DNA of 64,000 nt from Minisyncoccota bacterium (lineage in GTDB: Bacteria > Patescibacteriota > Minisyncoccia > Phycocordibacterales > Phycocordibacteraceae): the NCBI GenBank assembly GCA_036261925.1, contig DATAJW010000013.1:22544-86543 (forward strand), read 5' to 3'. Of the stretch, positions 13,812 to 47,543 are shown one piece after another. Position 1 is the first letter of the stretch. Each line of letters begins with the position of its first letter. Below the pieces are notes generated by a model. It was not told the origin of the DNA. It did no database searches and worked only from the letters and a program-made list of their open reading frames with translations. The position numbers and the translations under genes are program-made.

Positions 13812-16800
13812 ATGATCAAGAAAGATGCTCGCATGACGGCACTCCGCAAGACCCTTGCGGCGTTCAACGCTGCCGTACTGATGATTACCATGGTAGCGGT
13901 CAGCTCCCCTGTCGCGATAGCGCAGGAGACGCCGACAGATACCGCACCGGCCCAGGTAGAGGGACCGGTCACGTCGGACACGACGACCGATACGGACACC
14001 GACAAGAAGGATGCGACGGAACCGGCGCAGCCTCCGGCTGACGATACGCAGCCTCCGGCAACCGATCCCGGCACCGGTACGACCGGCGATGATGCGACCA
14101 ATCCCGAGAGCGGTGACCCAGCCGCTCCTAGCGACCCTGCGGTCGATACCGTCATCAAGGATGGCGGGAACGCGGTCATGACGTTCGTGGCGCCGCTCAT
14201 GGACGCGCTCCTGCTCGCGCCAGCAGCTGCGCTCGACCCGTTCCCGAGCACGAATGCGCAGAACCAGGTGAATGGGTACCCATATGTCGAGTTCGTGAGC
14301 GCCACTACGGATAGCGTCACGCTCAATTTCGTGAATCCGAAACCGCAGACCTATTATTTCGAGTATCGAATTGATGGTCTCGTACCAAGCGGTCGTCCAT
14401 CTAATTACAATCCCTGCAAGGAGTCGGCAACGCCTCTCAACGGCGCGTGTGGCGGGGCTCGGTATATCGCGGATGACGAGATTGCCTACCCCACTCACTC
14501 GGTAGCCGGAAACCTGACGAATCAGGTCACCATCCCGGCAGGCTCCACCGTCGAGATCCGCATGACATTCGGCCCAGAGCGTAACTACGATTTCGACTGG
14601 ATAACCTTCGATGTGGCAACGCCGCCCGATACGAGCAACATCAAGTTCGTCGGCAGCCCGAAGTACGTGCGCGCGAATAACGGGGGCGACCTCGCGGCGC
14701 AGCTCGTCACGCCCGACTCGACGACCGCGGTCAACTTCTTCATCGACGGGTCGGCAACCCCGGTTGCCGGTACGCTGCATGGGTCCGCGACGGCATCTAC
14801 CGATTGGTGGAGGCTCTACACGCCGCTTGCCCCGGGTGAGCACGCCATCACCGCGCAGGTAGAGATTGGCGGAGCCTGGTACGACGCAAGCGACACGGGA
14901 ACCGCGTATTCGCTCGATACGCCGTGGGCCCAGTACATCGTCCCGAATGCGGGACAGATGTTCCGTCCCGATGACATGGTCGTTCGGCTCAAGATCGATG
15001 ACCAGTTCGATCAGTTCAAGGAAGTCAGGGTAACGCTGAACAGCATCGTGCATACGGTACTGCGCTCCTCCTGCAATGACATCGGCGCAAGCGTATTGTG
15101 CGACCTTAAGGATCTCGGCCTCCCGGCCGGCACGTACTCCGCTTCCGCGACAATCTACACCAAGGCGAACAACCGGCTCGATAACCTGATGAGCGAGACG
15201 TTCACCATCGATGACCAGCGGCCGGTCGCGACGGGAATCCTCGTCGAGAATGCCGCACTCGGCGTCGTGACGAACACGGTGGTCGTATCGGCGAACGCGA
15301 CCGATGACCATGGCGTAGAGAGCGTGAACTTCTATGTCACCGAGCCGCGCAACGATGGCGTATGCACCGGAAACGGGACGAAGCTCGCGAGCGAGCGCGT
15401 GCTCGCGACCGATATAGATGGGAAGTATCGCGCAACGCTCGGCGTCGCGGGCCTCGCTGGCCCCTACTGCGTCACGGCGGTCGCGCGCGATGATGCCATG
15501 AACAACAGCCAGCTCATCCATCAGAAGGTCTCCATCGAGAACGCGGTGGTCGACAACGATGCGCCGAGCGTTCCGGTCATCATCGTCCCATCCAACGGTC
15601 AGGTCTTCACTTCCGCACCGATATTGAATGACTGGACGGACTCGACGGATGCGAGCGGGATAGATAAGTACGAAGTCGAGTATGTCTATTCGGATGGGCA
15701 CACCTTCAGCGGAGGCCCCTACCGCGAGACGGCAGGGAACGTGAGCCAGCGCAGCCATGCGCCAGGAGTGAGTGAACAGGGCGGCGTCACTATCCGCGTG
15801 CGCGCATACGATAATGCCGGCAACGTTAGCGGCTGGAGCGAGCCCGTCTTCTATGTGTACGACCAGGACGGTACCTATGTGAGCCGCATCATCTCGCCAG
15901 CTGATAGCGAAACCGTAAGTGGAGCGTCGTCTCTCACCGCGTTCTATGCGGACGAGAACGGCGACAATAACGACGGCGTGCAGTGGGCGGTCAGGAGCGG
16001 CGCGAGCTGCACCAACACGTCAGGTACGGTCTTCGGCAATGTCGACGGCCGCCATGACGCCGCTACCTGGGACCACGAGAACTTCGAGGCCTCGATCGAT
16101 ACTACGGCCATCGCGAACGGCGAGTACTGCTTCGTCTTCAATCCGACCGAGGATGCGGGCGACGCGAACCAGCGCCTGACGCGCGTCTTCTCGGTCCTTA
16201 ACGACGACAGCGTCCCGACGGTACCGGGCACCGAGACCATCACGGTCACCGGCACGACGGCATCCGGCGAGAACGATATCGGCGGTTGGTTCTTCAACCG
16301 CGACGCCTCGACGCAGTCCCCGTACGCATTCGCGACCGGTAACGCAAGCATCGGCTCGGGCAGCCTCTACGTCGAGCCGATCGAGAACGACATCAACGGC
16401 GATAGCGACAAGTTCATCGGCGAGCTCTTCCTCCAGAAGGCGCTCTCGGAGATCAACGGCATCTCGTTCGACTTCAAGATCGGCGCACCCGATGATACCG
16501 TCGCGGAGCAGTTCTACATGAACGTATACGCGACCTTCGGCGCATCGAGCGATACGAAGTACTACGATTGCCGGTACGATATCGTCGCGTCCTCCGGTTC
16601 GACCGCGGGCTACTCGACGGTCTCCTTCGATCCTAACGCTACCTACGCCCTCGTGACGCAATCGGGCAGCTCGCCGAGCGCCTGCCCGCAGAAGCCGTCC
16701 GACATGGGCGCTGGCGCGAAGGTGCGCGCCATCGCGCTTACGGTCGGGGACCAGAGCGACAACGACGCGGGCGTAAGCGGGTATCTCGATAACGTCATCG

Positions 16801-17291
16801 TGGATACCGATTCCATGGTCACGACGTATGACTTCGAGGCAGTTTCGGTTCCGGCAACCGTATCGCGCGGTAACGGCGGCGGAGGCGGTTCCGCCCGCGC
16901 TGCAGCGGCGAGCGCGGATGACGGCGACGATGAGGATGGCCGCGTGCTCGGCGCCTCGACGGACGCCGCCTGCAGCCCGCTCATCACGACGTTCATGGGC
17001 TTCGGCCGTCCGAACGATGCGGGCGAGGTGGGCCTCCTCCAGGACTTCCTCAATGCCCAGGCAGGCGCTGGCCTCCCGGTCACTGGCTTCTTCGGCGCGA
17101 TGACCCAGTCGGCGGTGCATGCGTACCAGAAGGCGCACTGGCAGGAGATCCTCCAGCCATGGTTCAGCGTGCCGGGTTCGGGCATCGCGGACGCGGACGA
17201 CTCGACCGGCTTCGTCGGCAAGATGACGCAGTGGAAGGTGAACATGACTCACTGCCCGGAGCTCGACCTTCCGACGCCAGAGCTCCCATAA
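13812..17291 (+). CDS. Giant secreted/surface protein (1159 aa) with C-terminal peptidoglycan-binding domain
   Basis: signal peptide; acidic T/P/D-rich linker; beta-rich repeats; C-terminal GEVGLLQDFLNAQAGAGLPVTGFFGAMTQSAVHAYQ resembles PG_binding_1. Confidence 0.7.
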   Translation: MIKKDARMTALRKTLAAFNAAVLMITMVAVSSPVAIAQETPTDTAPAQVEGPVTSDTTTDTDTDKKDATEPAQPPADDTQPPATDPGTGTTGDDATNPESGDPAAPSDPAVDTVIKDGGNAVMTFVAPLMDALLLAPAAALDPFPSTNAQNQVNGYPYVEFVSATTDSVTLNFVNPKPQTYYFEYRIDGLVPSGRPSNYNPCKESATPLNGACGGARYIADDEIAYPTHSVAGNLTNQVTIPAGSTVEIRMTFGPERNYDFDWITFDVATPPDTSNIKFVGSPKYVRANNGGDLAAQLVTPDSTTAVNFFIDGSATPVAGTLHGSATASTDWWRLYTPLAPGEHAITAQVEIGGAWYDASDTGTAYSLDTPWAQYIVPNAGQMFRPDDMVVRLKIDDQFDQFKEVRVTLNSIVHTVLRSSCNDIGASVLCDLKDLGLPAGTYSASATIYTKANNRLDNLMSETFTIDDQRPVATGILVENAALGVVTNTVVVSANATDDHGVESVNFYVTEPRNDGVCTGNGTKLASERVLATDIDGKYRATLGVAGLAGPYCVTAVARDDAMNNSQLIHQKVSIENAVVDNDAPSVPVIIVPSNGQVFTSAPILNDWTDSTDASGIDKYEVEYVYSDGHTFSGGPYRETAGNVSQRSHAPGVSEQGGVTIRVRAYDNAGNVSGWSEPVFYVYDQDGTYVSRIISPADSETVSGASSLTAFYADENGDNNDGVQWAVRSGASCTNTSGTVFGNVDGRHDAATWDHENFEASIDTTAIANGEYCFVFNPTEDAGDANQRLTRVFSVLNDDSVPTVPGTETITVTGTTASGENDIGGWFFNRDASTQSPYAFATGNASIGSGSLYVEPIENDINGDSDKFIGELFLQKALSEINGISFDFKIGAPDDTVAEQFYMNVYATFGASSDTKYYDCRYDIVASSGSTAGYSTVSFDPNATYALVTQSGSSPSACPQKPSDMGAGAKVRAIALTVGDQSDNDAGVSGYLDNVIVDTDSMVTTYDFEAVSVPATVSRGNGGGGGSARAAAASADDGDDEDGRVLGASTDAACSPLITTFMGFGRPNDAGEVGLLQDFLNAQAGAGLPVTGFFGAMTQSAVHAYQKAHWQEILQPWFSVPGSGIADADDSTGFVGKMTQWKVNMTHCPELDLPTPELP

Positions 17292-30801: not shown

Positions 30802-32976
30802 CTACGCAGCGGGGGATGCGGGAACGGGCCATGGGGCGACCATGAGGAATCCCTCGGTATCCTCGAGATTCTGCCAGATTTCTTCGGTTACGAACGGCAT
30901 GAACGGATGGAGGAGGATCAGGACGGAGCGGAGCAGCGATACGAGAAGCACTCGGCGCGACGCTTTCGCGGTCTCGTCCTCGCCCGCGAAGATCACTTTC
31001 GACTCCTCGAGCAGCACGTCCGCGAGACGATGCCATATGTAGTGGTATATCTTCTCCGAGGCCAGGTAGAGGCGGTACGCGTCGAGGTCAGCCGTGATAT
31101 CCGCGGCGAGCGCATCGAGCTCATCGCGCAGCGCTCGGTCGGTATCGGTGAGCGGGGCATTCGGGTCCGACTCGTCGGTATTCTCCAGGATGAAGCGGGT
31201 GATGTTCCACAGCTTGTTGCCGAAGTGCTTGTAGCCCTTGATCTTGTCTTCGGACATCCTCGAATCGGTGCCGGGCGTGTTCCCGACCAGGAGCGCCATG
31301 CGTGCCGCGTCGGCGCCGAACTTGCCGACGACCTCGATCGGGTCGATGCCGTTCCCGAGCGACTTGGAGAATTTCCGGCCCTGCGCGTCGCGAATGATGC
31401 CGTGCAGGTAGACGGTCCTGAATGGCACCTGGCCGAGCGCGAAGCCCGACATGAGTATCATGCGCGCGACCCAGAAGAAGAGGATCTCGTACGCGGTCTC
31501 GAGGACGTCGGTCGGATGGAACTTCGCGAGGTCCTTGGTCGCTTCGGGCCAGCCGAGCGTGGAGAAGGTCCAGGAACCGGATGAGAACCACGTATCGAGG
31601 GTGTCCTCATCCTGCGTCCAGCCTTCGCCTGGCGGCAAGAAGCCGACGGCGATCTCCTCGCCGCGGTACCACACGGGTACCCGGTGGCCGTACCAGATCT
31701 GGCGGGAGATGCACCACGGGCGCAGGTTATCGATCCAATGGAAATAGGTCTTGTTGAAATGCTCGGGAACGATGGAGATGGCGCTCGATTCGACCGCGGT
31801 GCGGAGCAGCTTCTTGAGCGTGATCGGCACGCCCGCTGCTATGCCCGGGATTTCCGAATGGTCGAGCGCGAATTCCTTTTCGGTATCGACGAACCACTGG
31901 AGCTTTATCTGCGGCTCGATGACGCCTCCGGTGCGCTCGGCGGTCGATACGTTATGGGTGTAGTCCTCGATGCGATCGACGAGGCCCTTCTCGGACAGCT
32001 TCTCGATTATCTTGTCGCGCGCTTCGCCTATCTTCATGCCGGCGAATTCGCCCGCTATAGGCAGGAGCTTGCCGTACCAGTCGATGACCTGCTCCTTGTC
32101 GAGGCCGTGCTTCTCGGCGAGCTCGAAGTCCACGGCAGAATGCCAGGGCGTGATCGTCATGACGCCCGTGCCGAATCCTGGATCGACCGCCTCGTCCTTG
32201 ATGATGGTCGCCTCGATGGGGCCGTTGATCCATTCGACGGTGAGCTTCTGTCCATGCGCGTATTCAGCGTAGCGCGCGTCATCGGGGTGCATCACGACGT
32301 ACTTGTCGCCGAACTTGGTCTCGGGGCGCGCGGTGCCGATGACGAACGGCCCGTACTTGAGGTAATAGAACTTATCCTTGCGCTCCTCATAGACGATCTC
32401 ATCGTCGGAGATGGTGGTCTGGCCCTTCGGGTCCCAGTTCACGATGCGGTGGCCGCGGTAGATGAGCCCTGCGTCGTACATGCGCTTGAACATGGTGTTC
32501 ACGGCGAAATTGCGCTTCTCGTCGAAAGTGAACGCTTCGCGCGACCAGTCGCAGGAGGAACCCATCACGCGTATCTGGCTGCGGATGGTGGAGCGGCTGC
32601 CCTCCACGAACTCATCGATGCGGCGTACCAGCTCCTCGCGCCCCAAGTCGTGCCGGCTCTTCTTCTCGCTCTTCGCTATGTCCTTCTCGACGCGCGCCTG
32701 GGTCGCGATAGCGGCATGGTCGGTCCCAGGTAGCCAGAGCGCGGCGAATCCCTGCATGCGCTTGAAGCGGATGAGCACGTCCTCGACCGTCAGGCCGAGC
32801 GCATGGCCCATATGGAGGACGCCCGTCGCGTTGGGCGGCGGCATCATGATGGTGTAGGGGGTCGGACGGTCGCCCGGGAGATTGTCCGGGTTGAATAGTC
32901 CGCTTTCTTCCCAGGCCTCGTAGATGCGGCCCTCGGTCTCCTGGGAATTGTACGGCTTGAGGAATTTGCTATCCAT
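30802..32976 (-). CDS. valS: Valyl-tRNA synthetase (short form, 724 aa)
   Basis: PPPNATGVLHMGH (HIGH), KFSKSLGN (KMSKS), editing domain; lacks the long C-terminal coiled coil. Confidence 0.9.
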   Translation of the reverse strand: MDSKFLKPYNSQETEGRIYEAWEESGLFNPDNLPGDRPTPYTIMMPPPNATGVLHMGHALGLTVEDVLIRFKRMQGFAALWLPGTDHAAIATQARVEKDIAKSEKKSRHDLGREELVRRIDEFVEGSRSTIRSQIRVMGSSCDWSREAFTFDEKRNFAVNTMFKRMYDAGLIYRGHRIVNWDPKGQTTISDDEIVYEERKDKFYYLKYGPFVIGTARPETKFGDKYVVMHPDDARYAEYAHGQKLTVEWINGPIEATIIKDEAVDPGFGTGVMTITPWHSAVDFELAEKHGLDKEQVIDWYGKLLPIAGEFAGMKIGEARDKIIEKLSEKGLVDRIEDYTHNVSTAERTGGVIEPQIKLQWFVDTEKEFALDHSEIPGIAAGVPITLKKLLRTAVESSAISIVPEHFNKTYFHWIDNLRPWCISRQIWYGHRVPVWYRGEEIAVGFLPPGEGWTQDEDTLDTWFSSGSWTFSTLGWPEATKDLAKFHPTDVLETAYEILFFWVARMILMSGFALGQVPFRTVYLHGIIRDAQGRKFSKSLGNGIDPIEVVGKFGADAARMALLVGNTPGTDSRMSEDKIKGYKHFGNKLWNITRFILENTDESDPNAPLTDTDRALRDELDALAADITADLDAYRLYLASEKIYHYIWHRLADVLLEESKVIFAGEDETAKASRRVLLVSLLRSVLILLHPFMPFVTEEIWQNLEDTEGFLMVAPWPVPASPAA

Positions 32977-35848: not shown

Positions 35849-35964
35849 ACTGCAACTATTTGCCTCCAACTACAGAGTCCTGGTATATACCGTCCATCAC
35901 TCCTTTTATCCTTGATAGATACAATCTACCCGGGATGCGAACCGCTACGGTGCCCTCTCTATTG

Positions 35965-36036
35965 TGACCCCACGGGGAATCGAACCCCGATTTCCTGCGT
36001 GAAAGGCGGGCGTCCTAACCGTTAGACGATGGGGCC
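35965..36036 (-). tRNA. tRNA-Glu (anticodon TTC)
   Basis: reverse complement GGCCCCATCGTCTAACGGTTAGGACGCCCGCCTTTCACGCAGGAAATCGGGGTTCGATTCCCCGTGGGGTC. Confidence 0.8.
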
Positions 36037-36098
36037 TTCATTCACTCGAATATCCTACATTTTTAAGGCTGAAAATGCTAGGATACGTTGGTTCTCTT

Positions 36099-36188
36099 GG
36101 AGAGGTGGCTGAGTGGTCGAAGGCACCGCACTCGAAATGCGGCGTACGGGAAACTGTACCGAGAGTTCGAATCTCTCCCTCTCCGCCA
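36099..36188 (+). tRNA. tRNA-Ser (anticodon CGA), CCA encoded
   Basis: acceptor GGAGAGG/CCTCTCC, anticodon loop CTCGAAA, long variable arm, T-loop TTCGAAT. Confidence 0.8.
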
Positions 36189-37488: not shown

Positions 37489-38682
37489 ATGCAGCCCAAG
37501 GAGTGCGCGGAATGCGGTTCGGGAGCCATATACCATCGGCTCACCTATATCAGTATCGTCATCGACGAGTTAATGGCGGGCCTCCTGCCGACGCCCTCGG
37601 GCTCGAACTGGTTCAGCAGGGCCGTGCAGGCCGTCGAGCGGCGAGCGACACCGTACCTGCTCGAAGCCTTCATGGCCATCGGCCTTGCGACGCGGGTCAC
37701 GGAACCGGATGACCGGACGCAGCTGCTTGCGCTCATGCTCTGGAACGAGGCCAGGGAGCGGGATATACGGGTCGAGGAGGTACGGCTCTTCGGCCTGCCG
37801 CGCAACATCTTCCTCGCCACGTATCCGGATGGCCGGAAGGTAGCGTACGAGGGCATTCCGCTGCCGCCCGAGGATATCGAGCGGGTCGCGTGGATGGACG
37901 ACAAGGCCGAGCTCAAGAAGCGGTTCCGCAAGCTCGGGCTCCCGGTAGCGCACGGAGGCGACGCACGCACGCTCCGCACGGCACGCGCCCTCTTCGCGGC
38001 CATGACGCCGCCGGCTATCGCGAAGCCTTACTCGGGTTCGGCGTCGCGTCATACGACGCTCCATATCACTGACGAGCACGAGCTCGCGCGCGCATTCCGG
38101 GTCGCGGTCGAGGTGGCGCCGCGAGCGGTCATCGAGGAGGAGCTGGTCGGATCCGTCTATCGCGCGACGGTCGTCGACGGGAAGTTCGCCGCCGCTATCA
38201 GGCGCGACCAACCGTACGTCGTCGGCGACGGTACGCGCACCGTCCGGGAGCTTGTCGCGGAGGCGAATACGCATCCGGCGCGCAGCGGCCCCTATTTCCA
38301 TGCAATCAAGCTTGATGAGGCGGCCGAAGGCGAACTCGCCTGGCAAGGACTCGATCTCGACGCGATTCCCGAAGCCGGGAGGAACGTCACGCTCCACCAG
38401 AAGATAAACTGGTCGGTCGGCGGCACGACCGCGGACGTCACGGACGACGTGCACCCCGATAACATCGCGCTTTTCGAGGAGACGGCGCGCGTGCTGAAGG
38501 CACCTATCGTGGGCATCGATTTCATCATCGCGGATATCGGCCGCTCGTGGAAGGAGCTCGAGCGCTGCGGCATCCTCGAGACGAACAGCATGCCCTTCTT
38601 CGATAACCACCATCTCCCGTTCGAAGGAAAGCCGCGCAATGTCGCGGCCGCCATCTGGGATATGAACATCGCCCGTCTTTGA
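37489..38682 (+). CDS. ATP-grasp enzyme resembling the N-terminal/ATP-grasp half of cyanophycin synthetase (no Mur-ligase M domain)
   Basis: YVVGDGTRTVRELV, INWSVGGTTADVTDDVHPDN, IVGIDFIIADIG, GILETNSMPFF closely parallel the CphA G-domain. Confidence 0.6.
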   Translation: MQPKECAECGSGAIYHRLTYISIVIDELMAGLLPTPSGSNWFSRAVQAVERRATPYLLEAFMAIGLATRVTEPDDRTQLLALMLWNEARERDIRVEEVRLFGLPRNIFLATYPDGRKVAYEGIPLPPEDIERVAWMDDKAELKKRFRKLGLPVAHGGDARTLRTARALFAAMTPPAIAKPYSGSASRHTTLHITDEHELARAFRVAVEVAPRAVIEEELVGSVYRATVVDGKFAAAIRRDQPYVVGDGTRTVRELVAEANTHPARSGPYFHAIKLDEAAEGELAWQGLDLDAIPEAGRNVTLHQKINWSVGGTTADVTDDVHPDNIALFEETARVLKAPIVGIDFIIADIGRSWKELERCGILETNSMPFFDNHHLPFEGKPRNVAAAIWDMNIARL

Positions 38683-41865: not shown

Positions 41866-43032
41866 TTAGGGGAGAAACTGCTTGAAGAACCGCTGTACCG
41901 CCCCCGCGACATCCCCCGCGGACCGCTTCTTCGGGGTCTCGGTGTCGCCGGTGAGCCCCCAGAGCGCGAGGCCGTACGCGACCGCCCAGGTCGCGTCGCG
42001 GACCTTCACTTCCGGCGAGATGCGCATGTCGGCGATGCGCGACGGGAGGTTCAGCGTACCCTTCGCGATGTCGGTGATAGAGCCTTGCCCAGCGCCGCCG
42101 CCCGAGATGATGATGCCTGCAGGGAGGGTGCGTCCGCGGCCGAGCTGCTTCAGGTGCTTGTCGATGAGCTCGAACATGGCGCGGAAGCGCGCGGTGACTA
42201 TTTCCTCCACCTTGCGGCGCGGATACATGGAACCCGAGAGGCGGCCGAGCTTCAGGCGCTCCGCGTCCTCGAGCGATACCTTGAAGCCGAGCGCGAGGTC
42301 GTCGGTGATGTGCGTGGAGCCGATAGGGAAGACCTTCACGGATACCGGAAGGCCCTCGTCGTACACCACGATTGAGACGGTCTCGGCCCCGATGTTGGCG
42401 AGGACGCAGCCCTTCATCTTCTGGTCCTTGGTGAGGGTGACATAGGAACCCGCGAGCGGGGACGCCATGCGGTCGATGACCTCGATATCGGCCGCCTCGG
42501 TCGCGGTCTCGAGCAGCTCGGCATGCTGCGTGAGGCAGGTGATGAAGAGGTAGTCGGCCTCAAGGCGGGTGCCCTTGAGGCCGACCGGCTCACCGAGCGA
42601 CTTCGTGCCGTCGACGCGGAACTCGAGCGGTATCTCGTGGAGCACGGTGCGGTTGAGGAAGTTCGGACGGGCCGCTTCCCGCGCGGCCTCCCGGGTCTTC
42701 TCGATATCGAGATCGGTTATCTCCTGGTCGGCGCGGGATATGACCGTCTCGCCCGAGGCGCGGACCTCGTCGAGAGAGATGCCGCCGATGGCGAGGAAGC
42801 CTTTCTTGATGGGAACCTGCGCGGTCTGCTCGGCCTGCTGGCGCGCAGCACGGACGGATTCCGCCGCGTCCTCCGCATCGACGACATAGCCGTGGCGCAA
42901 GCCCCGCGTCTCCGCGATGCCCGTCCCGATGATGCGCAGCACCGGCCCTTCCTGGCTAGCCAGCTCCTCGACGACCACCACCTTGGTGTGGTGGGTGCCG
43001 ATATCAATGCCGGTTGCTATGCGTCGTGCCAT
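41866..43032 (-). CDS. ftsA: Cell division protein FtsA (start at internal Met)
   Basis: MARRIATGIDIGTHHTKVVVVE actin-fold N-terminus; the tool ORF has a 69-aa non-conserved extension. Confidence 0.85.
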   Translation of the reverse strand: MARRIATGIDIGTHHTKVVVVEELASQEGPVLRIIGTGIAETRGLRHGYVVDAEDAAESVRAARQQAEQTAQVPIKKGFLAIGGISLDEVRASGETVISRADQEITDLDIEKTREAAREAARPNFLNRTVLHEIPLEFRVDGTKSLGEPVGLKGTRLEADYLFITCLTQHAELLETATEAADIEVIDRMASPLAGSYVTLTKDQKMKGCVLANIGAETVSIVVYDEGLPVSVKVFPIGSTHITDDLALGFKVSLEDAERLKLGRLSGSMYPRRKVEEIVTARFRAMFELIDKHLKQLGRGRTLPAGIIISGGGAGQGSITDIAKGTLNLPSRIADMRISPEVKVRDATWAVAYGLALWGLTGDTETPKKRSAGDVAGAVQRFFKQFLP

Positions 43033-43423
43033 GTACAGGGGGAATGTGGATGAGGCGAGCGAGAAGCGCTCGCTCTTCACGTTCCATTGTAGGGCCGTGA
43101 CGCTTCCCGGCCAAATGCAGGAGCCCGTGGATAAAAAGGAATCCGACGAATGCGGTGTACGAAAGCCCGTAGTCGGGCGCCTGCTTCTTCGCGACCTCGA
43201 GGCAGATGATGATCTCGCCGCTCTTGTTCCCGGTCTCATACGAGAGGACGTTCGGGACGTAGTCCTTGTTGCGGAGCTTTACGTTGATGCTCTGCGCACG
43301 CTGCTGTCCCGCGAACACGAGGGAGATGTCCCAGCCGGGAAGGGCAGCATCGAGCGCTTTCTTATATGGAAAAGCAGGCTGAGGGCGCCGGGTGAAGTTT
43401 CGAGTGTCGAGCGAACTTTTCAT
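43004..43423 (-). CDS. ybeY: Endoribonuclease YbeY
   Basis: VLSY...IIICLEV...HGLLHLAGKRHG (H3xH5xH zinc motif). Confidence 0.7.
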   Translation of the reverse strand: MKSSLDTRNFTRRPQPAFPYKKALDAALPGWDISLVFAGQQRAQSINVKLRNKDYVPNVLSYETGNKSGEIIICLEVAKKQAPDYGLSYTAFVGFLFIHGLLHLAGKRHGPTMEREERALLARLIHIPPVHGTTHSNRH

Positions 43424-43562: not shown

Positions 43563-43823
43563 TTACTTGCGGCCGCGAGTCTTGCGAGCAGCCGGGTCAA
43601 TCTTACCAAGCTTTACTTGCTCGTTGTAATCGGCGCGGCGGCCGGCAGCGACGATAGCGCGCGCGTGCTCGACGTTCTTCGACTTCGTGCGGCTGTAGTA
43701 GCGGCGCTTGCGGAGCGCGCGGACGAGGCCGAGGCCCTGGCCACGGCGGGAAAAGCGGCGGATAAGCGAGGCTGAACTCTCGTTCTTCCCGCGCTTAACC
43801 TCTACGCGTACGGCGTTTTGCAT
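43563..43823 (-). CDS. rpsU: 30S ribosomal protein S21 (start at internal Met)
   Basis: VEVKRGKNESSASLIRRFSRRGQGLGLVRALRKRRYY pattern; the 79-aa extension on the tool ORF is non-conserved. Confidence 0.55.
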   Translation of the reverse strand: MQNAVRVEVKRGKNESSASLIRRFSRRGQGLGLVRALRKRRYYSRTKSKNVEHARAIVAAGRRADYNEQVKLGKIDPAARKTRGRK

Positions 43824-43917
43824 ACGTGTGACAGTAGCATAAATGGCCCTTTTCTGTCTACCGGGTAACGAAAACGCCCGGTCCAATTGCTTGGACCGGG
43901 CGGTAGACCGGTAGCTG

Positions 43918-44220
43918 TCACGCTTTCTCGAGCGCACGCCAGCCAGCCATGAAGGCGAGGGTGCCGACGATGGCGAAGAAGGTCGGGGCGTATGTGCCGA
44001 TAAGTCCATCGCCGAGGAAGCGGGATTGAGGACCGACCGGCAGGGTCTGATCGGCGCCAAGCGAGATGAGCGCCGAGCCGTAATGTCCGGCGTCCACGAT
44101 CATCCGGACGAGTTCATGGCCCGCGAACGCGCTGAGGGCGAGCAGGCCGGCGCCGATCATGAGGAGACTGACCCCGTAGAACCTGTTAGAACCTTTCTTC
44201 TTCGATGCGGCAACGTTCAT
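43918..44220 (-). CDS. small membrane protein, hypothetical (100 aa)
   Basis: 3 predicted TM helices. Confidence 0.4.
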   Translation of the reverse strand: MNVAASKKKGSNRFYGVSLLMIGAGLLALSAFAGHELVRMIVDAGHYGSALISLGADQTLPVGPQSRFLGDGLIGTYAPTFFAIVGTLAFMAGWRALEKA

Positions 44221-44303
44221 GTATGGCCTCCTTTAGCGCCATGGTTTGTCTGTATATACTATAGTCTAAACTATAACTTTTGTCAAGTTTATCGGGATGG
44301 CTC

Positions 44304-45449
44304 CTATCCAACCACCTTCAGATGCGCGATGAGGGAATCGAGCGGGATATGGGACTCGGTATGGGTGGCGCGCTCGCGGAGGATGACGGAGCGCTCGAGC
44401 GCTTCCTTGCGGCCCATGATGAGGAGATAGGGCGCGTTCGTGATGTCGGCGAGGCGCATCTGCTCGGTCAGGGAGGCGATGCCGATGGACTGGATGAGCG
44501 GAACGCGGGCGCGGCGGAGCTCGTCAGCGATCTTCATGCTCTCGCGCTTGGCCTCGTCGCCGATATGCACGAAGACGAAGCGGGGAGTACCGCGCTGCTT
44601 CACGGCCGGTATCGGCTCGCGGTTCTCGACATTGATGCGTATGACGGCGCCCATGGACGGGACATGGGACTTGAAGAACGTGCGCGCGAAATCGGTGTAG
44701 CGGGAGCCCCAGGCATGGAGCGCATCGTCGCCCTGTATCTCGAAGCAGGTCTCCGCCCAGGACGCGCCACGCGAAAGGAGCCCGGGCGCGAGGTCATACG
44801 GCGTCTCGGTCGCTTCGAGGTACTCGAGGACGCTCTCGAAGTGCTTACGGCTCGATTCTGAAAGATGGTCGGTAGGCGAGGGGAGCTCGTCCGCGTCCTC
44901 GCCCGACGCGAGGAGCTCGGCGGCCTCGAAGACATCCCGCTTGGCGCAGTCGACGCAGTCGGCGGGCAGCGTCGGCCCCTGCTTGCGGAAGAATTGCGTG
45001 AGCTCGCGCGCGAAACGGCTGCGGGTCTCGCGGTCGCCCATGCTGTTGAGGCGCAGGCGCGGCTCGCCCTTGGCGAGGTCCTGCATGAGCGCGCGCACGG
45101 CGCGTATGAGGACCGCATCCGCTATCGCATTCTCGACGCCGAGCACATGGAACTGCACGACGATCTGCTTGGGCGACGGGCGCCCGTAGGCGGCGTTGGT
45201 GTGCCAGAGGAAGAGCGGCTGGAGCGTGGACGGTTCGAGTCCCGCATCGCGTACCTGCTTCAGGAGGCTCGCGACCTCGCGCGCGGCCGGATCGAGCGCC
45301 TCGAGCGCTATCGAATCGGGATACGGGCCCTTCGCGCCCTTGCCGCGGTTGCCGGCAGCCAGTGCCGAGAGCGGCGTGAAGCCATAGTAGGTACCGATAG
45401 CGTGCGCGCGCTTCAGGACGTCGGATGGCTCGTGCGCAAGGGTGCTCAT
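44304..45449 (-). CDS. Histidyl-tRNA synthetase-like class II aaRS paralog (HisRS/HisZ family), catalytic motifs degenerate
   Basis: C-terminal anticodon-binding domain (PRFVFVHIGDEAK...LIMGRKE) and GSRYTDF (motif-3-like) present; the motif-2 FRYERPQ.GRYR arginines are replaced (LWHTNAAYGRPSPKQIVVQF). Confidence 0.55.
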   Translation of the reverse strand: MSTLAHEPSDVLKRAHAIGTYYGFTPLSALAAGNRGKGAKGPYPDSIALEALDPAAREVASLLKQVRDAGLEPSTLQPLFLWHTNAAYGRPSPKQIVVQFHVLGVENAIADAVLIRAVRALMQDLAKGEPRLRLNSMGDRETRSRFARELTQFFRKQGPTLPADCVDCAKRDVFEAAELLASGEDADELPSPTDHLSESSRKHFESVLEYLEATETPYDLAPGLLSRGASWAETCFEIQGDDALHAWGSRYTDFARTFFKSHVPSMGAVIRINVENREPIPAVKQRGTPRFVFVHIGDEAKRESMKIADELRRARVPLIQSIGIASLTEQMRLADITNAPYLLIMGRKEALERSVILRERATHTESHIPLDSLIAHLKVVG

Positions 45450-45997
45450 TGCGTTTCGTGTACGGCGCCCGGCAGTACGCCGACCACATCGGCAGGCAGC
45501 AGGCGGATGTAGGCGCGGCCCATCAGGTCCTCGCGCGGGAGAGCGCCCCAGACGCGGGAATCGGAGCTGCGCGGCCGATTGTCGCCCATGACGAAGAATT
45601 CGTCGGACGCGAGCGCGGTATCGAGGCTGTAGGTGGCGTCCTCGGCGACGACGTAGGACTCATCGAGCTCGATGACGGAGCCGTCGGCGCGCGTGATGCT
45701 CGTCTTGCCGGCCTCGATGTGCACGGTCTCGCCCGGCAGGCCGATGATGCGCTTGATGTAGAAGACCTTGGGGTCGTTCGGGTAACGGAACACCACGACG
45801 TCGCCGCGTTTCGGGTCGCCGAAGCGGTACGAGAGCTCGTCGACGATGAGATAATCGCCGCTCTCGAACGTCGGATGCATGCTCTCGCCCTCGACGACGA
45901 ACGGCTGCGCGACGAACAGCCGTATCGGGATGACGATGACGATCGCGAGGATGATGAATGTAAGGATCTCCTTGAACGCTTGCCCGAGGAATTGCAT
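45446..45997 (-). CDS. lepB: Signal peptidase I
   Basis: SMHPTF (Ser box), RGDVVVFRYP, GDNRPRSSDSR; 183 aa. Confidence 0.9.
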   Translation of the reverse strand: MQFLGQAFKEILTFIILAIVIVIPIRLFVAQPFVVEGESMHPTFESGDYLIVDELSYRFGDPKRGDVVVFRYPNDPKVFYIKRIIGLPGETVHIEAGKTSITRADGSVIELDESYVVAEDATYSLDTALASDEFFVMGDNRPRSSDSRVWGALPREDLMGRAYIRLLPADVVGVLPGAVHETQ

Positions 45998-46090
45998 GTG
46001 AGGGTATTGTAAGCCTCATGGTGCGTGCGTCAACTTTTCGCGCGTGCGCACCGAGCGCGCACGGACGTATCGCGCACGCTGCGCGGCTGC

Positions 46091-46790: not shown

Positions 46791-47543
46791 ATGACGGCAC
46801 CGTCTCTTCAAGAGATCGATCGCCAGCTGCCGCTTCTCTATACCAACACGCTCGTGCGGTACGAGCCGCTTCCTATCCGCGGCAAGCGCAACCTGCTCAT
46901 GCTGCTCGACCTGCATGCGGTCCCGCATGCGACTGAATGGGGGGACGGGTACTCCCGCACGCTCCCGCAGCTCATCCGCGATATGCGCCGAGGCGAAGCG
47001 ACCATCGTGCTCTACTATCCGAGCATCGCGGGCTTCCAAGAAGATCACGCGTACCTGACGCGGATGATACGGACGGTATCGATCCGCATCACGTACGACC
47101 TGCCCGATCCGACGCCGCTCAACCCCGAGCATGTGCGGCCGCTCGTGCTGCGCGAATACCGCACGGCCGCAGGCGGCGCGCTCCATCCGCGGAAGTTCCC
47201 GAATCCGAGCGAGACGATGGTGCGGAAGGACCGGACGCAGCACCATACGATCCTGCGGTTGCTGCGCGAGGAGCTCGGCATCCGCATCACGCACCGCCAG
47301 TTCCGGAGCCTGATCGTCCCGAACCTGACGTTCATGCCTTCGGCGCTGCGCGAGTTCGAGGACCAATGCGCGGGACGGCAGACCGAGCTCGCTATCCACG
47401 CCTCGGATAAGTATCCGGGACTCTGGACGCACAACGAGGTCTGGCACTACCTGCTCAAGCTTCCGACGCAGTTCTACCAGCCGGACGGGTACCGCGAGGA
47501 CCAGAACGTCAGCTTATGGGAAGATGCCGAGCACAAAGACTGA
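46791..47543 (+). CDS. hypothetical protein (250 aa), partial Nudix-like REELGI signature only
   Basis: ORF preceded by GAGGAGA SD; followed by two terminator hairpins (47545-47570, 47581-47607). Confidence 0.45.
   Translation: MTAPSLQEIDRQLPLLYTNTLVRYEPLPIRGKRNLLMLLDLHAVPHATEWGDGYSRTLPQLIRDMRRGEATIVLYYPSIAGFQEDHAYLTRMIRTVSIRITYDLPDPTPLNPEHVRPLVLREYRTAAGGALHPRKFPNPSETMVRKDRTQHHTILRLLREELGIRITHRQFRSLIVPNLTFMPSALREFEDQCAGRQTELAIHASDKYPGLWTHNEVWHYLLKLPTQFYQPDGYREDQNVSLWEDAEHKD

Follow-up and report, generated by a model that had tools for sequence, protein, structure and literature searches.

A hisS ortholog without the class II catalytic residues is maintained under strong purifying selection in Paceibacteria

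We found that the gene at the hisS locus in a 64-kb stretch of Paceibacteria (CPR) DNA, referred to here as the window, encodes a relative of histidyl-tRNA synthetase (HisRS) that has lost the residues needed for class II and HisRS catalysis and has kept the insertion domain and the anticodon-binding domain (ABD). The gene is a positional ortholog of hisS, belongs to a widely distributed family and is under strong purifying selection. Few enzymes are as highly conserved as the aminoacyl-tRNA synthetases, and hisS is routinely used as a single-copy marker in phylogenetics. The reading that we favor, with moderate confidence, is that the product is a non-catalytic, tRNA-binding pseudo-synthetase encoded at the hisS locus and that tRNA-His is charged by another enzyme.

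The reading frame proposed in the initial annotation of this DNA was recovered at the same place and strand:

44304..45449, minus strand, coding sequence of the HisRS-like protein (381 aa), a degenerate HisRS ortholog

The only Pfam domain found in the product was HGTP_anticodon (PF03129; residues 294-378, E 6.6e-08, 33 bits against a cutoff of 21), which agrees with the annotated retention of the HisRS ABD. Pfam tRNA-synt_His (PF13393) gave no match to the window protein at E <= 1, and the score against the HisRS equivalog model TIGR00442 was 82.9 bits, below the cutoff of 286.75. Judged by such models, the protein falls outside all curated definitions of HisRS. Its closest sequence matches in the PDB were bacterial HisRS (E 5.6e-15 and weaker, ~1e-15 to 1e-10).

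We analyzed the genes surrounding the HisRS-like gene in the window and in related loci. The relevant features of the window are:

45446..45997, minus strand, lepB (signal peptidase I), directly upstream (Pfam Peptidase_S26, E 1e-44)
45446..45449, minus strand, 4-nt ATGA in which the start codon of the HisRS-like gene overlaps the lepB stop codon, read as caATGAgc
46006..46033, minus strand, sigma-70-like promoter match upstream of lepB, TTGACG-16-TACAAT (consensus scan, pattern match only)
43563..43823, minus strand, S21-like small ribosomal protein gene, the downstream neighbor (Pfam Ribosomal_S21, 21.3 bits, under the cutoff of 27)

The lepB gene was located immediately upstream in all 84 close related loci and in 61 out of 61 distant metagenomic loci, and the 4-nt ATGA overlap was also present in 66 of 84 related loci. 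On the downstream side, S21 was found in 77 of 84 loci, the set S21, ybeY, ftsA, and ftsZ in 70-77 of 84, and ybeY in 52 of 55 metagenomic loci. Distant degenerate members of the family (P0135, P0218, and P0163) were found in the same block, pth-lepB-X-S21-ybeY-ftsA-ftsZ-trxB. In three independent Paceibacteria loci (L089/L090, L091, and L092), the block pth-lepB-hisS-S21-ybeY-ftsA-ftsZ-trxB contained a canonical HisRS; two of the three also had gyrA and S1 farther upstream. Since canonical hisS fills the identical slot, the window gene is a positional ortholog of hisS and not an additional paralog, as it had been described. The overlap with lepB, from which co-translation in an operon had been suggested, is indeed 4 nt long, but it offers no clue to a new function: lepB and hisS are also adjacent in lineages with the canonical enzyme, and the coupling is therefore inherited. 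As annotated, histidine-biosynthesis genes, including hisG, were absent among the ~50 window ORFs scanned with Pfam; none appeared in the gene lists of the related loci either.

To characterize the protein, we compared its motifs with those of canonical HisRS in HMMER and MAFFT alignments. Canonical residues are numbered as in E. coli HisRS, for which a 424-aa sequence was used to verify the positions. From the N to the C terminus, the segments are:

45366..45389, minus strand, motif-1-like segment YYGFTPLS (residues 21-28), corresponding to the class II dimer-interface region
45132..45218, minus strand, remnant of the motif-2 beta-hairpin (residues 78-106), PLFLWHTNAAYGRPSPKQIVVQFHVLGVE, without fRxE and the loop arginines
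44784..45041, minus strand, HisRS insertion domain (residues 137-222), containing the conserved PSPTDHLSExSRKHFExVLEYLE
44757..44774, minus strand, HisA remnant SRGASW (residues 226-231; canonical RGLDYY), placed by alignment
44697..44708, minus strand, HisB motif kept as GSRY (residues 248-251), aligned to E. coli G285 and R287
44628..44657, minus strand, motif-3 remnant SMGAVIRINV (residues 265-274), with V274 at the canonical Arg position
44307..44582, minus strand, HGTP anticodon-binding domain (residues 290-381), Pfam PF03129

The motif-1-like segment is well kept: G23 and F24 were invariant or nearly so among 90 family members, and canonical CPR HisRS read VYYGFKPIETP at this place. In motif 2, the window protein has AAYGRPSPKQIVVQF in place of FRHERPQKGRYRQF. 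Both alignments placed non-basic residues at the positions of R113, E115, R121, and R123, and the replacement of the motif-2 arginines noted in the initial annotation is thus real. The QP and IADA anchors are separated by 32 residues in the window protein and by 38 in P0334, a canonical Paceibacteria HisRS, which makes the hairpin 6 residues shorter; in the AF2 model, strands at residues 79-84 and 95-103 are joined by a 10-residue loop. The E83/T85 loop LRPEGTAG has become LDPAAREV. The loop had been correctly reported as absent but was labeled HisA, which we take to be RGLDYY, the motif containing R259 (E. coli numbering). At that motif, a gapless alignment places S226 at the R259 position, and R227 could stand for R259 only if a 1-residue deletion is assumed. 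The HisB motif, canonically GGRYD, is retained as GSRY(T/N)(D/E), with G248 and R250 invariant in 90 diverse members. This motif explains the segment GSRYTDF, formerly read as motif-3-like, which aligns with GGRYDGL (E. coli 285-291) and belongs to the HisB histidine loop. The true motif 3 has lost its class II arginine (E. coli R311 in GxGxGxER); R271 sits 3 residues earlier than V274, and the AF2 model contains no helix after the motif-3 strand.

Four basic residues lie near the lost arginines in the window subclade, namely R90, which is invariant, K94, R227, and R271. It had been proposed that catalytic arginines present in shifted positions, together with the lack of any other hisS in the genome, would overturn the assignment as a pseudo-synthetase. 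R90, R227, and R271 are indeed 1-3 residues off the canonical positions in the window subclade, but they are not conserved in the wider degenerate clade. Even inside the subclade, two of them vary: among 85 orthologs, the R227 position was R in 71, H in 8, K in 4, and N in 1, and the R271 position was R in 81, K in 2, Q in 1, and H in 1. With the residues needed for class II and HisRS catalysis absent, the initial view that the protein resembles a pseudo-synthetase rather than a working HisRS is supported.

Compared with canonical Paceibacteria HisRS (TIGR00442, class IIa; P0334, ~435 aa), which occupies the same slot pth-lepB-hisS-S21-ybeY-ftsA-ftsZ, the window protein has the same order of domains (class II core, insertion domain, HGTP anticodon-binding domain) and shares the motifs YYGF.P, INSxGD, LSE.SR.HF.EVL.YLE, and G.RY as well as ABD motifs such as GQKEA. 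It differs in being ~55 residues shorter, with a truncated motif-2 hairpin, and in the loss of the LRPE(Y/G)T loop, RGLDYY (R259), and the motif-3 arginine. The canonical Paceibacteria enzymes carry PF13393, PF00587, and PF03129 and the motifs VRPEYT, FRH(D/E)xPQRGRxRQF, RG(L/Q)(D/S)YY, GGGRYD, and motif-3 (E/D)R.

We then modeled the structure of the window protein. AF2 run on a 90-sequence alignment gave a confident model (pLDDT 95.0, pTM 0.93), compared with a pLDDT of 36.6 from the single sequence. The top Foldseek matches of the model were HisRS, led by 4rdx (E 2.8e-21). Global TM-scores were low because the domain orientation differs. The protein as modeled has the three-dimensional fold of HisRS.

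Relatives of the window protein were found to be numerous. The close set, obtained by protein search, comprised at least 120 clusters at 68-77% identity. Organism names among the matches listed were Patescibacteria, Paceibacteria, or Parcubacteria, except for one labeled Bacillota, and the sources labeled the proteins 'histidyl-tRNA synthetase' or 'His/Gly/Thr/Pro-type tRNA ligase C-terminal domain-containing protein'. When GTDB species genomes were scanned, relatives were identified in at least 257, and we fetched the best 80. Near-complete assemblies with the degenerate gene include LFCN01 (C7867-004, 686-kb contig), CAVXAH01 (595 kb), CAWKPH01 (688 kb), JAZKIU01 (640 kb), DASPLI01 (743 kb), DASWXP01 (622 kb), ERZ1292625 contig 3 (680 kb), Ga0208770_1000001 (519 kb), and the MAG of HEX2792400.1. 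Metagenomes scanned with a low-GC subgroup of distant members as seed yielded at least 481 confirmed stretches, and in all 80 metagenomic loci fetched, motifs 2 and 3, the LRPE loop, and RGLDYY were missing. HMMER, run exhaustively against 1.84 billion cluster representatives, returned 232 clusters at E <= 1e-30, a number that rose to 706 when the threshold was relaxed to E <= 1e-10. The top 150 clusters (clustered at 50% identity) were all family members, and the 80 sequences read from them (26-50% identity, ~375-470 aa) were all without the canonical motif 2. Pfam detected the ABD in each of 90 family members and a weak tRNA-synt_His match in 37. The ORF was intact in 172 out of 172 related loci. 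As the degeneracy is common to 85 close orthologs, 80 distant representatives, and 80 metagenomic loci, it does not reflect chance or sequencing error.

We next examined conservation and selection. Among close relatives, the median dN/dS was 0.030 (Nei-Gojobori, 23 pairs), with each domain below 0.06, and purifying selection on the gene is strong. The median identity of orthologs to the window protein was 69%, close to that of lepB (68%) and pth (67%). Over longer range the gene evolved faster than its neighbors, with 33% identity between the window and L088 versus 44-70% for pth, lepB, FtsZ, and S1. Empirical substitution counts showed little directional (GC) bias. In the 85 close orthologs, G89, R90, P93, Q99-F100-H101, W231, G248, and R250 were invariant. 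Eight residues were invariant in the 90-sequence alignment (F24, G138, P190, L196, G248, R250, G346, and E349); E. coli HisRS has all eight, and ATP-binding residues are not among them. In canonical Paceibacteria HisRS, R81, E83, T85, R121, R123, Q127, E131, R259, and R311 were conserved in 7 out of 7 sequences and F125 in 6 out of 7, whereas the columns for R113 and E115 contained gaps or misalignments. In the degenerate clade, conservation was seen at none of these positions.

Conservation was distributed unevenly along the protein. The former active-site pocket did not differ significantly from the rest in the 85 close orthologs (entropy 0.90 vs 1.03), and in 79 distant members it was the more variable part (2.70 vs 2.38). 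The ABD had the lowest entropy and was the best-conserved region, and the insertion domain also had low column entropy in both the close and the distant sets. For close and distant degenerate members, respectively, identity to P0334 was 16% and 19% in the N-terminal active-site core, where E. coli and canonical CPR HisRS are 31% identical; 35% and 31% in the insertion domain (E. coli versus canonical CPR, 36%); and 33% and 47% in the ABD (E. coli versus canonical CPR, 18.5%).

The loss of the ATP-binding and histidine-activating signatures, the lack of a conserved replacement across the family, and a pocket that is not a hot-spot of conservation all point away from canonical catalysis, and aminoacylation activity has probably been lost. 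The ABD and insertion domain, kept and constrained at a dN/dS of ~0.03, argue for a functional, non-catalytic protein that probably binds tRNA-His. The family would thus descend from hisS in a large Paceibacteria clade in which class II histidine activation was lost, and a HisRS-shaped protein would have been kept under strong selection with its ABD and insertion domain intact. As predicted from domain conservation, it would most likely still bind tRNA, probably tRNA-His through the ABD. Its role could be in tRNA sensing, sequestration, or chaperoning, or as a partner subunit. Histidine usage is normal (~2.2-2.5%), which indicates that His-tRNA is still needed, and histidylation of tRNA-His would then fall to a replacement HisRS that presumably exists elsewhere in the genome. 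The window organism is a small, symbiont-like bacterium.

Several observations weigh against the pseudo-synthetase reading. Carrying a dead and a live synthetase together would be costly for genomes of ~0.6-0.8 Mb, and tblastn searches, for which E. coli HisRS and the canonical P0334 served as queries, revealed no second HisRS in the 64-kb window or in the flanks of up to 10 kb on either side of the gene at 172 related loci (~2.3 Mb in total) drawn from GTDB genomes, metagenomes, and assemblies. We also looked for tRNA-His genes, with the G-1/C73 pair in mind, and found none in the window or in any related locus recovered. In addition, the degenerate core itself has a dN/dS of ~0.03 and basic residues nearby, and the pocket may therefore still bind something.

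An unlikely but viable alternative is that the HisRS-shaped scaffold serves a function unrelated to tRNA-His, with a small molecule in the old pocket or with the ABD turned to another RNA or a protein partner, in the manner of the Pol gamma accessory subunit. Purifying selection on the degenerate core in the close clade is consistent with this, as are the clade-specific invariant residues that line the former pocket (W82, H83, G89, R90, Q99-F100-H101, and W231). These pocket residues are not common to the whole degenerate family, however, and the ABD retains a lineage-specific resemblance (up to 47%) to that of canonical CPR HisRS, for which the same ligand, the anticodon arm of tRNA-His, is the simplest explanation.

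It is also improbable, in our assessment, that the protein is the sole histidyl-tRNA synthetase of these cells, with a rebuilt active site in which shifted basic residues such as R90, K94, R227, and R271 take the place of the motif-2 and motif-3 arginines, unless a partner does so in trans. Several findings fit such an enzyme: its gene occupies the ancestral hisS locus, no other HisRS turned up in the window or within +-10 kb in the 172 loci, the whole protein including the core is under strong purifying selection, and histidine usage is normal. At the residue level, the 85 close orthologs all have R90 and mostly keep R227 and R271, and the HisB G-x-R-Y is kept together with an aromatic residue at the Y264 position. 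Against it, a class II adenylate-forming enzyme without the motif-2 arginine is not known. Conservation of the candidate substitutes does not extend to the wider degenerate clade, where both the length and the sequence of the motif-2 region vary, and some close orthologs have H, K, N, or Q in place of R227 and R271. The positions homologous to the active site are not the most conserved ones, the opposite of the pattern expected of an enzyme. We regard it as unlikely that these Paceibacteria have no canonical HisRS, with the motif-less ortholog as their only HisRS homolog and with His-tRNA(His) made either by a class II scaffold that does not have the universal motif-2 and motif-3 arginines, through a rebuilt or trans-completed site, or by an undescribed route.

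A decaying, functionless relic of hisS is very unlikely. The loss of the catalytic motifs, the faster long-range evolution relative to the neighbors (33% vs 44-70% identity), and the longer root-to-tip distance in an NJ tree (2.84 vs 1.70 for canonical sequences) would be expected of a relic, but an intact ORF is present at every one of the 172 related loci, dN/dS is ~0.03, the AF2 model is confident, and the translationally coupled start is conserved. The HisZ-type assignment suggested by the initial annotation, that is, a regulatory subunit of ATP phosphoribosyltransferase, can be set aside as extremely improbable: HisZ (TIGR00443) has no ABD, acts with HisG to make histidine, and exists as a true paralog beside a working HisRS, whereas the window protein keeps the ABD, does not match TIGR00443 at E <= 1 in an NCBIfam scan, has no hisG or other his genes among the ~50 window ORFs scanned, is closer to real HisRS in structure and sequence, and is encoded at the hisS locus.

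HisZ is the only bacterial HisRS paralog listed in reviews (PMC9437257, PMC5388404, PMC11580382), and a full-text search of the literature found no description of a degenerate HisRS from CPR. Outside bacteria, the HisRS-like module of GCN2 resembles the window protein in combining an inactive HisRS-like core with an ABD. The GCN2 module is part of a large eukaryotic kinase (an eIF2-alpha kinase with other effectors), in contrast to the stand-alone bacterial protein of 381 aa found here, for which GCN2-type binding of uncharged tRNA is predicted from the conserved ABD. The accessory subunit of mitochondrial DNA polymerase gamma is likewise a class II pseudo-synthetase that keeps an ABD-like module. 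It is GlyRS/ProRS-like and eukaryotic, and it binds the polymerase and DNA; the window protein shows no sign of such a role.

In a very large clade of uncultured bacteria, then, all catalytic signatures have disappeared from the ortholog of hisS, yet the protein is strongly selected and its tRNA-binding parts are intact, which raises the question of how cells with a degenerate hisS charge tRNA-His. If a second HisRS exists, the family would be a full-length pseudo-HisRS of a class new to bacteria, comparable to the GCN2 sensor module but stand-alone, and would show cleanly how an essential enzyme can be displaced and repurposed in minimal genomes. If there is none, the textbook mechanism of class II aminoacylation would not apply to these organisms. 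The label 'histidyl-tRNA synthetase' used in some sources, IMG among them, hides this problem in metabolic reconstructions, and since the curated HisRS models miss the degenerate proteins, marker-gene counts for CPR genomes are affected.

We constructed a rough NJ tree of degenerate and canonical sequences. The 89 degenerate sequences formed one clade that excluded the canonical ones. The root-to-tip length was 2.84 for degenerate and 1.70 for canonical sequences, and long-branch effects are possible. One further protein, P0256, has an intermediate form: it is located in the same genomic slot and keeps LRPD and the motif-3 ER, with R113, E115, and R259 lost. Its nearest relatives (~50% identity) are fully canonical Paceibacteria HisRS of ~435 aa, and it grouped with the canonical sequences in the tree. 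This placement suggests a second, independent degeneration of hisS.

Another HisRS-family protein with altered catalytic residues, P0256, was found at locus L086, in the slot next to lepB that the HisRS-like gene of the window occupies.

L086 10001-11305: HisRS-family protein P0256, 434 aa, in the same lepB slot (Logan SRR34217545)

P0256 still has a match to the Pfam family tRNA-synt_His and retains LRPD and the ER of motif 3, and has lost R113, E115, and R259 (E. coli HisRS numbering). It groups with canonical HisRS enzymes, with which it shares ~50% identity. Its catalytic residues thus appear to have degenerated separately from those of the main degenerate family, as a second event at a later date.

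The organism of the window is an unusually GC-rich member of Paceibacteria, with ~63% GC (0.57-0.69 along the window) and GC3 up to 0.9. The loci fetched from a metagenome scan seeded with a distant low-GC subgroup of the degenerate family (L093-L172) have a GC content of 0.28-0.57. The degenerate HisRS-like family occurs across genomes of 28% to 63% GC.

Downstream of the HisRS-like gene lie the following genes of the conserved block and one additional ORF.

43918-44220 (-): 100-aa ORF, predicted hydrophobic, GC3 0.78
43563-43823 (-): S21-like gene, 86 aa, with a sub-threshold match to Pfam Ribosomal_S21
43004-43423 (-): ybeY
41866-43239 (-): ftsA, longest ORF 457 aa

The 100-aa ORF, located between the S21-like gene and the HisRS-like gene, had no Pfam match. 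Of 84 related loci, a single one (L046) showed a homolog, and the ORF therefore looks like a lineage-specific insertion in an otherwise conserved block. It has a promoter-like site of its own and a strong terminator-like hairpin (flanking sites 44258-44286 and 43875-43902). The 86-aa gene scored 21.3 against a Ribosomal_S21 threshold of 27 bits, but is kept in 77 loci at 66-92% identity and therefore appears to encode a divergent S21. The longest ftsA ORF overlaps ybeY by ~235 nt. Since ftsA orthologs are ~388 aa long and their alignment begins around 43020, the true start is probably near that position, which would leave an overlap of a few codons with the end of ybeY.

The remaining features are located elsewhere in the window.

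46791-47543 (+): 250-aa ORF, well supported by GC3
37489-38682 (+): 397-aa ORF, well supported by GC3
13812-17291 (+): 1159-aa protein with a signal-like N-terminus
30802-32976 (-): class I synthetase, 724 aa, with a ValRS-like N-terminus, tRNA-synt_1, and Anticodon_1
35964-36188: divergent tRNA-Glu(UUC)/tRNA-Ser(CGA) pair, ~8 kb from the HisRS-like gene

Neither the 250-aa nor the 397-aa ORF had a Pfam match; the former stands between pth and S1, in place of the alpha/beta-hydrolase gene of the related locus L001. The 1159-aa protein, whose sole domain match is a weak peptidoglycan-binding domain near the C-terminus, is a large predicted secreted or surface protein. The class I synthetase gives a split match to the catalytic-domain profile, in which residues 18-441 correspond to profile positions 2-251. 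The protein is markedly shorter than typical ValRS and may therefore lack a domain or have one in reduced form. Most related loci have the tRNA pair at an equivalent position (e.g., L006, 18145-18380), so its placement is conserved.
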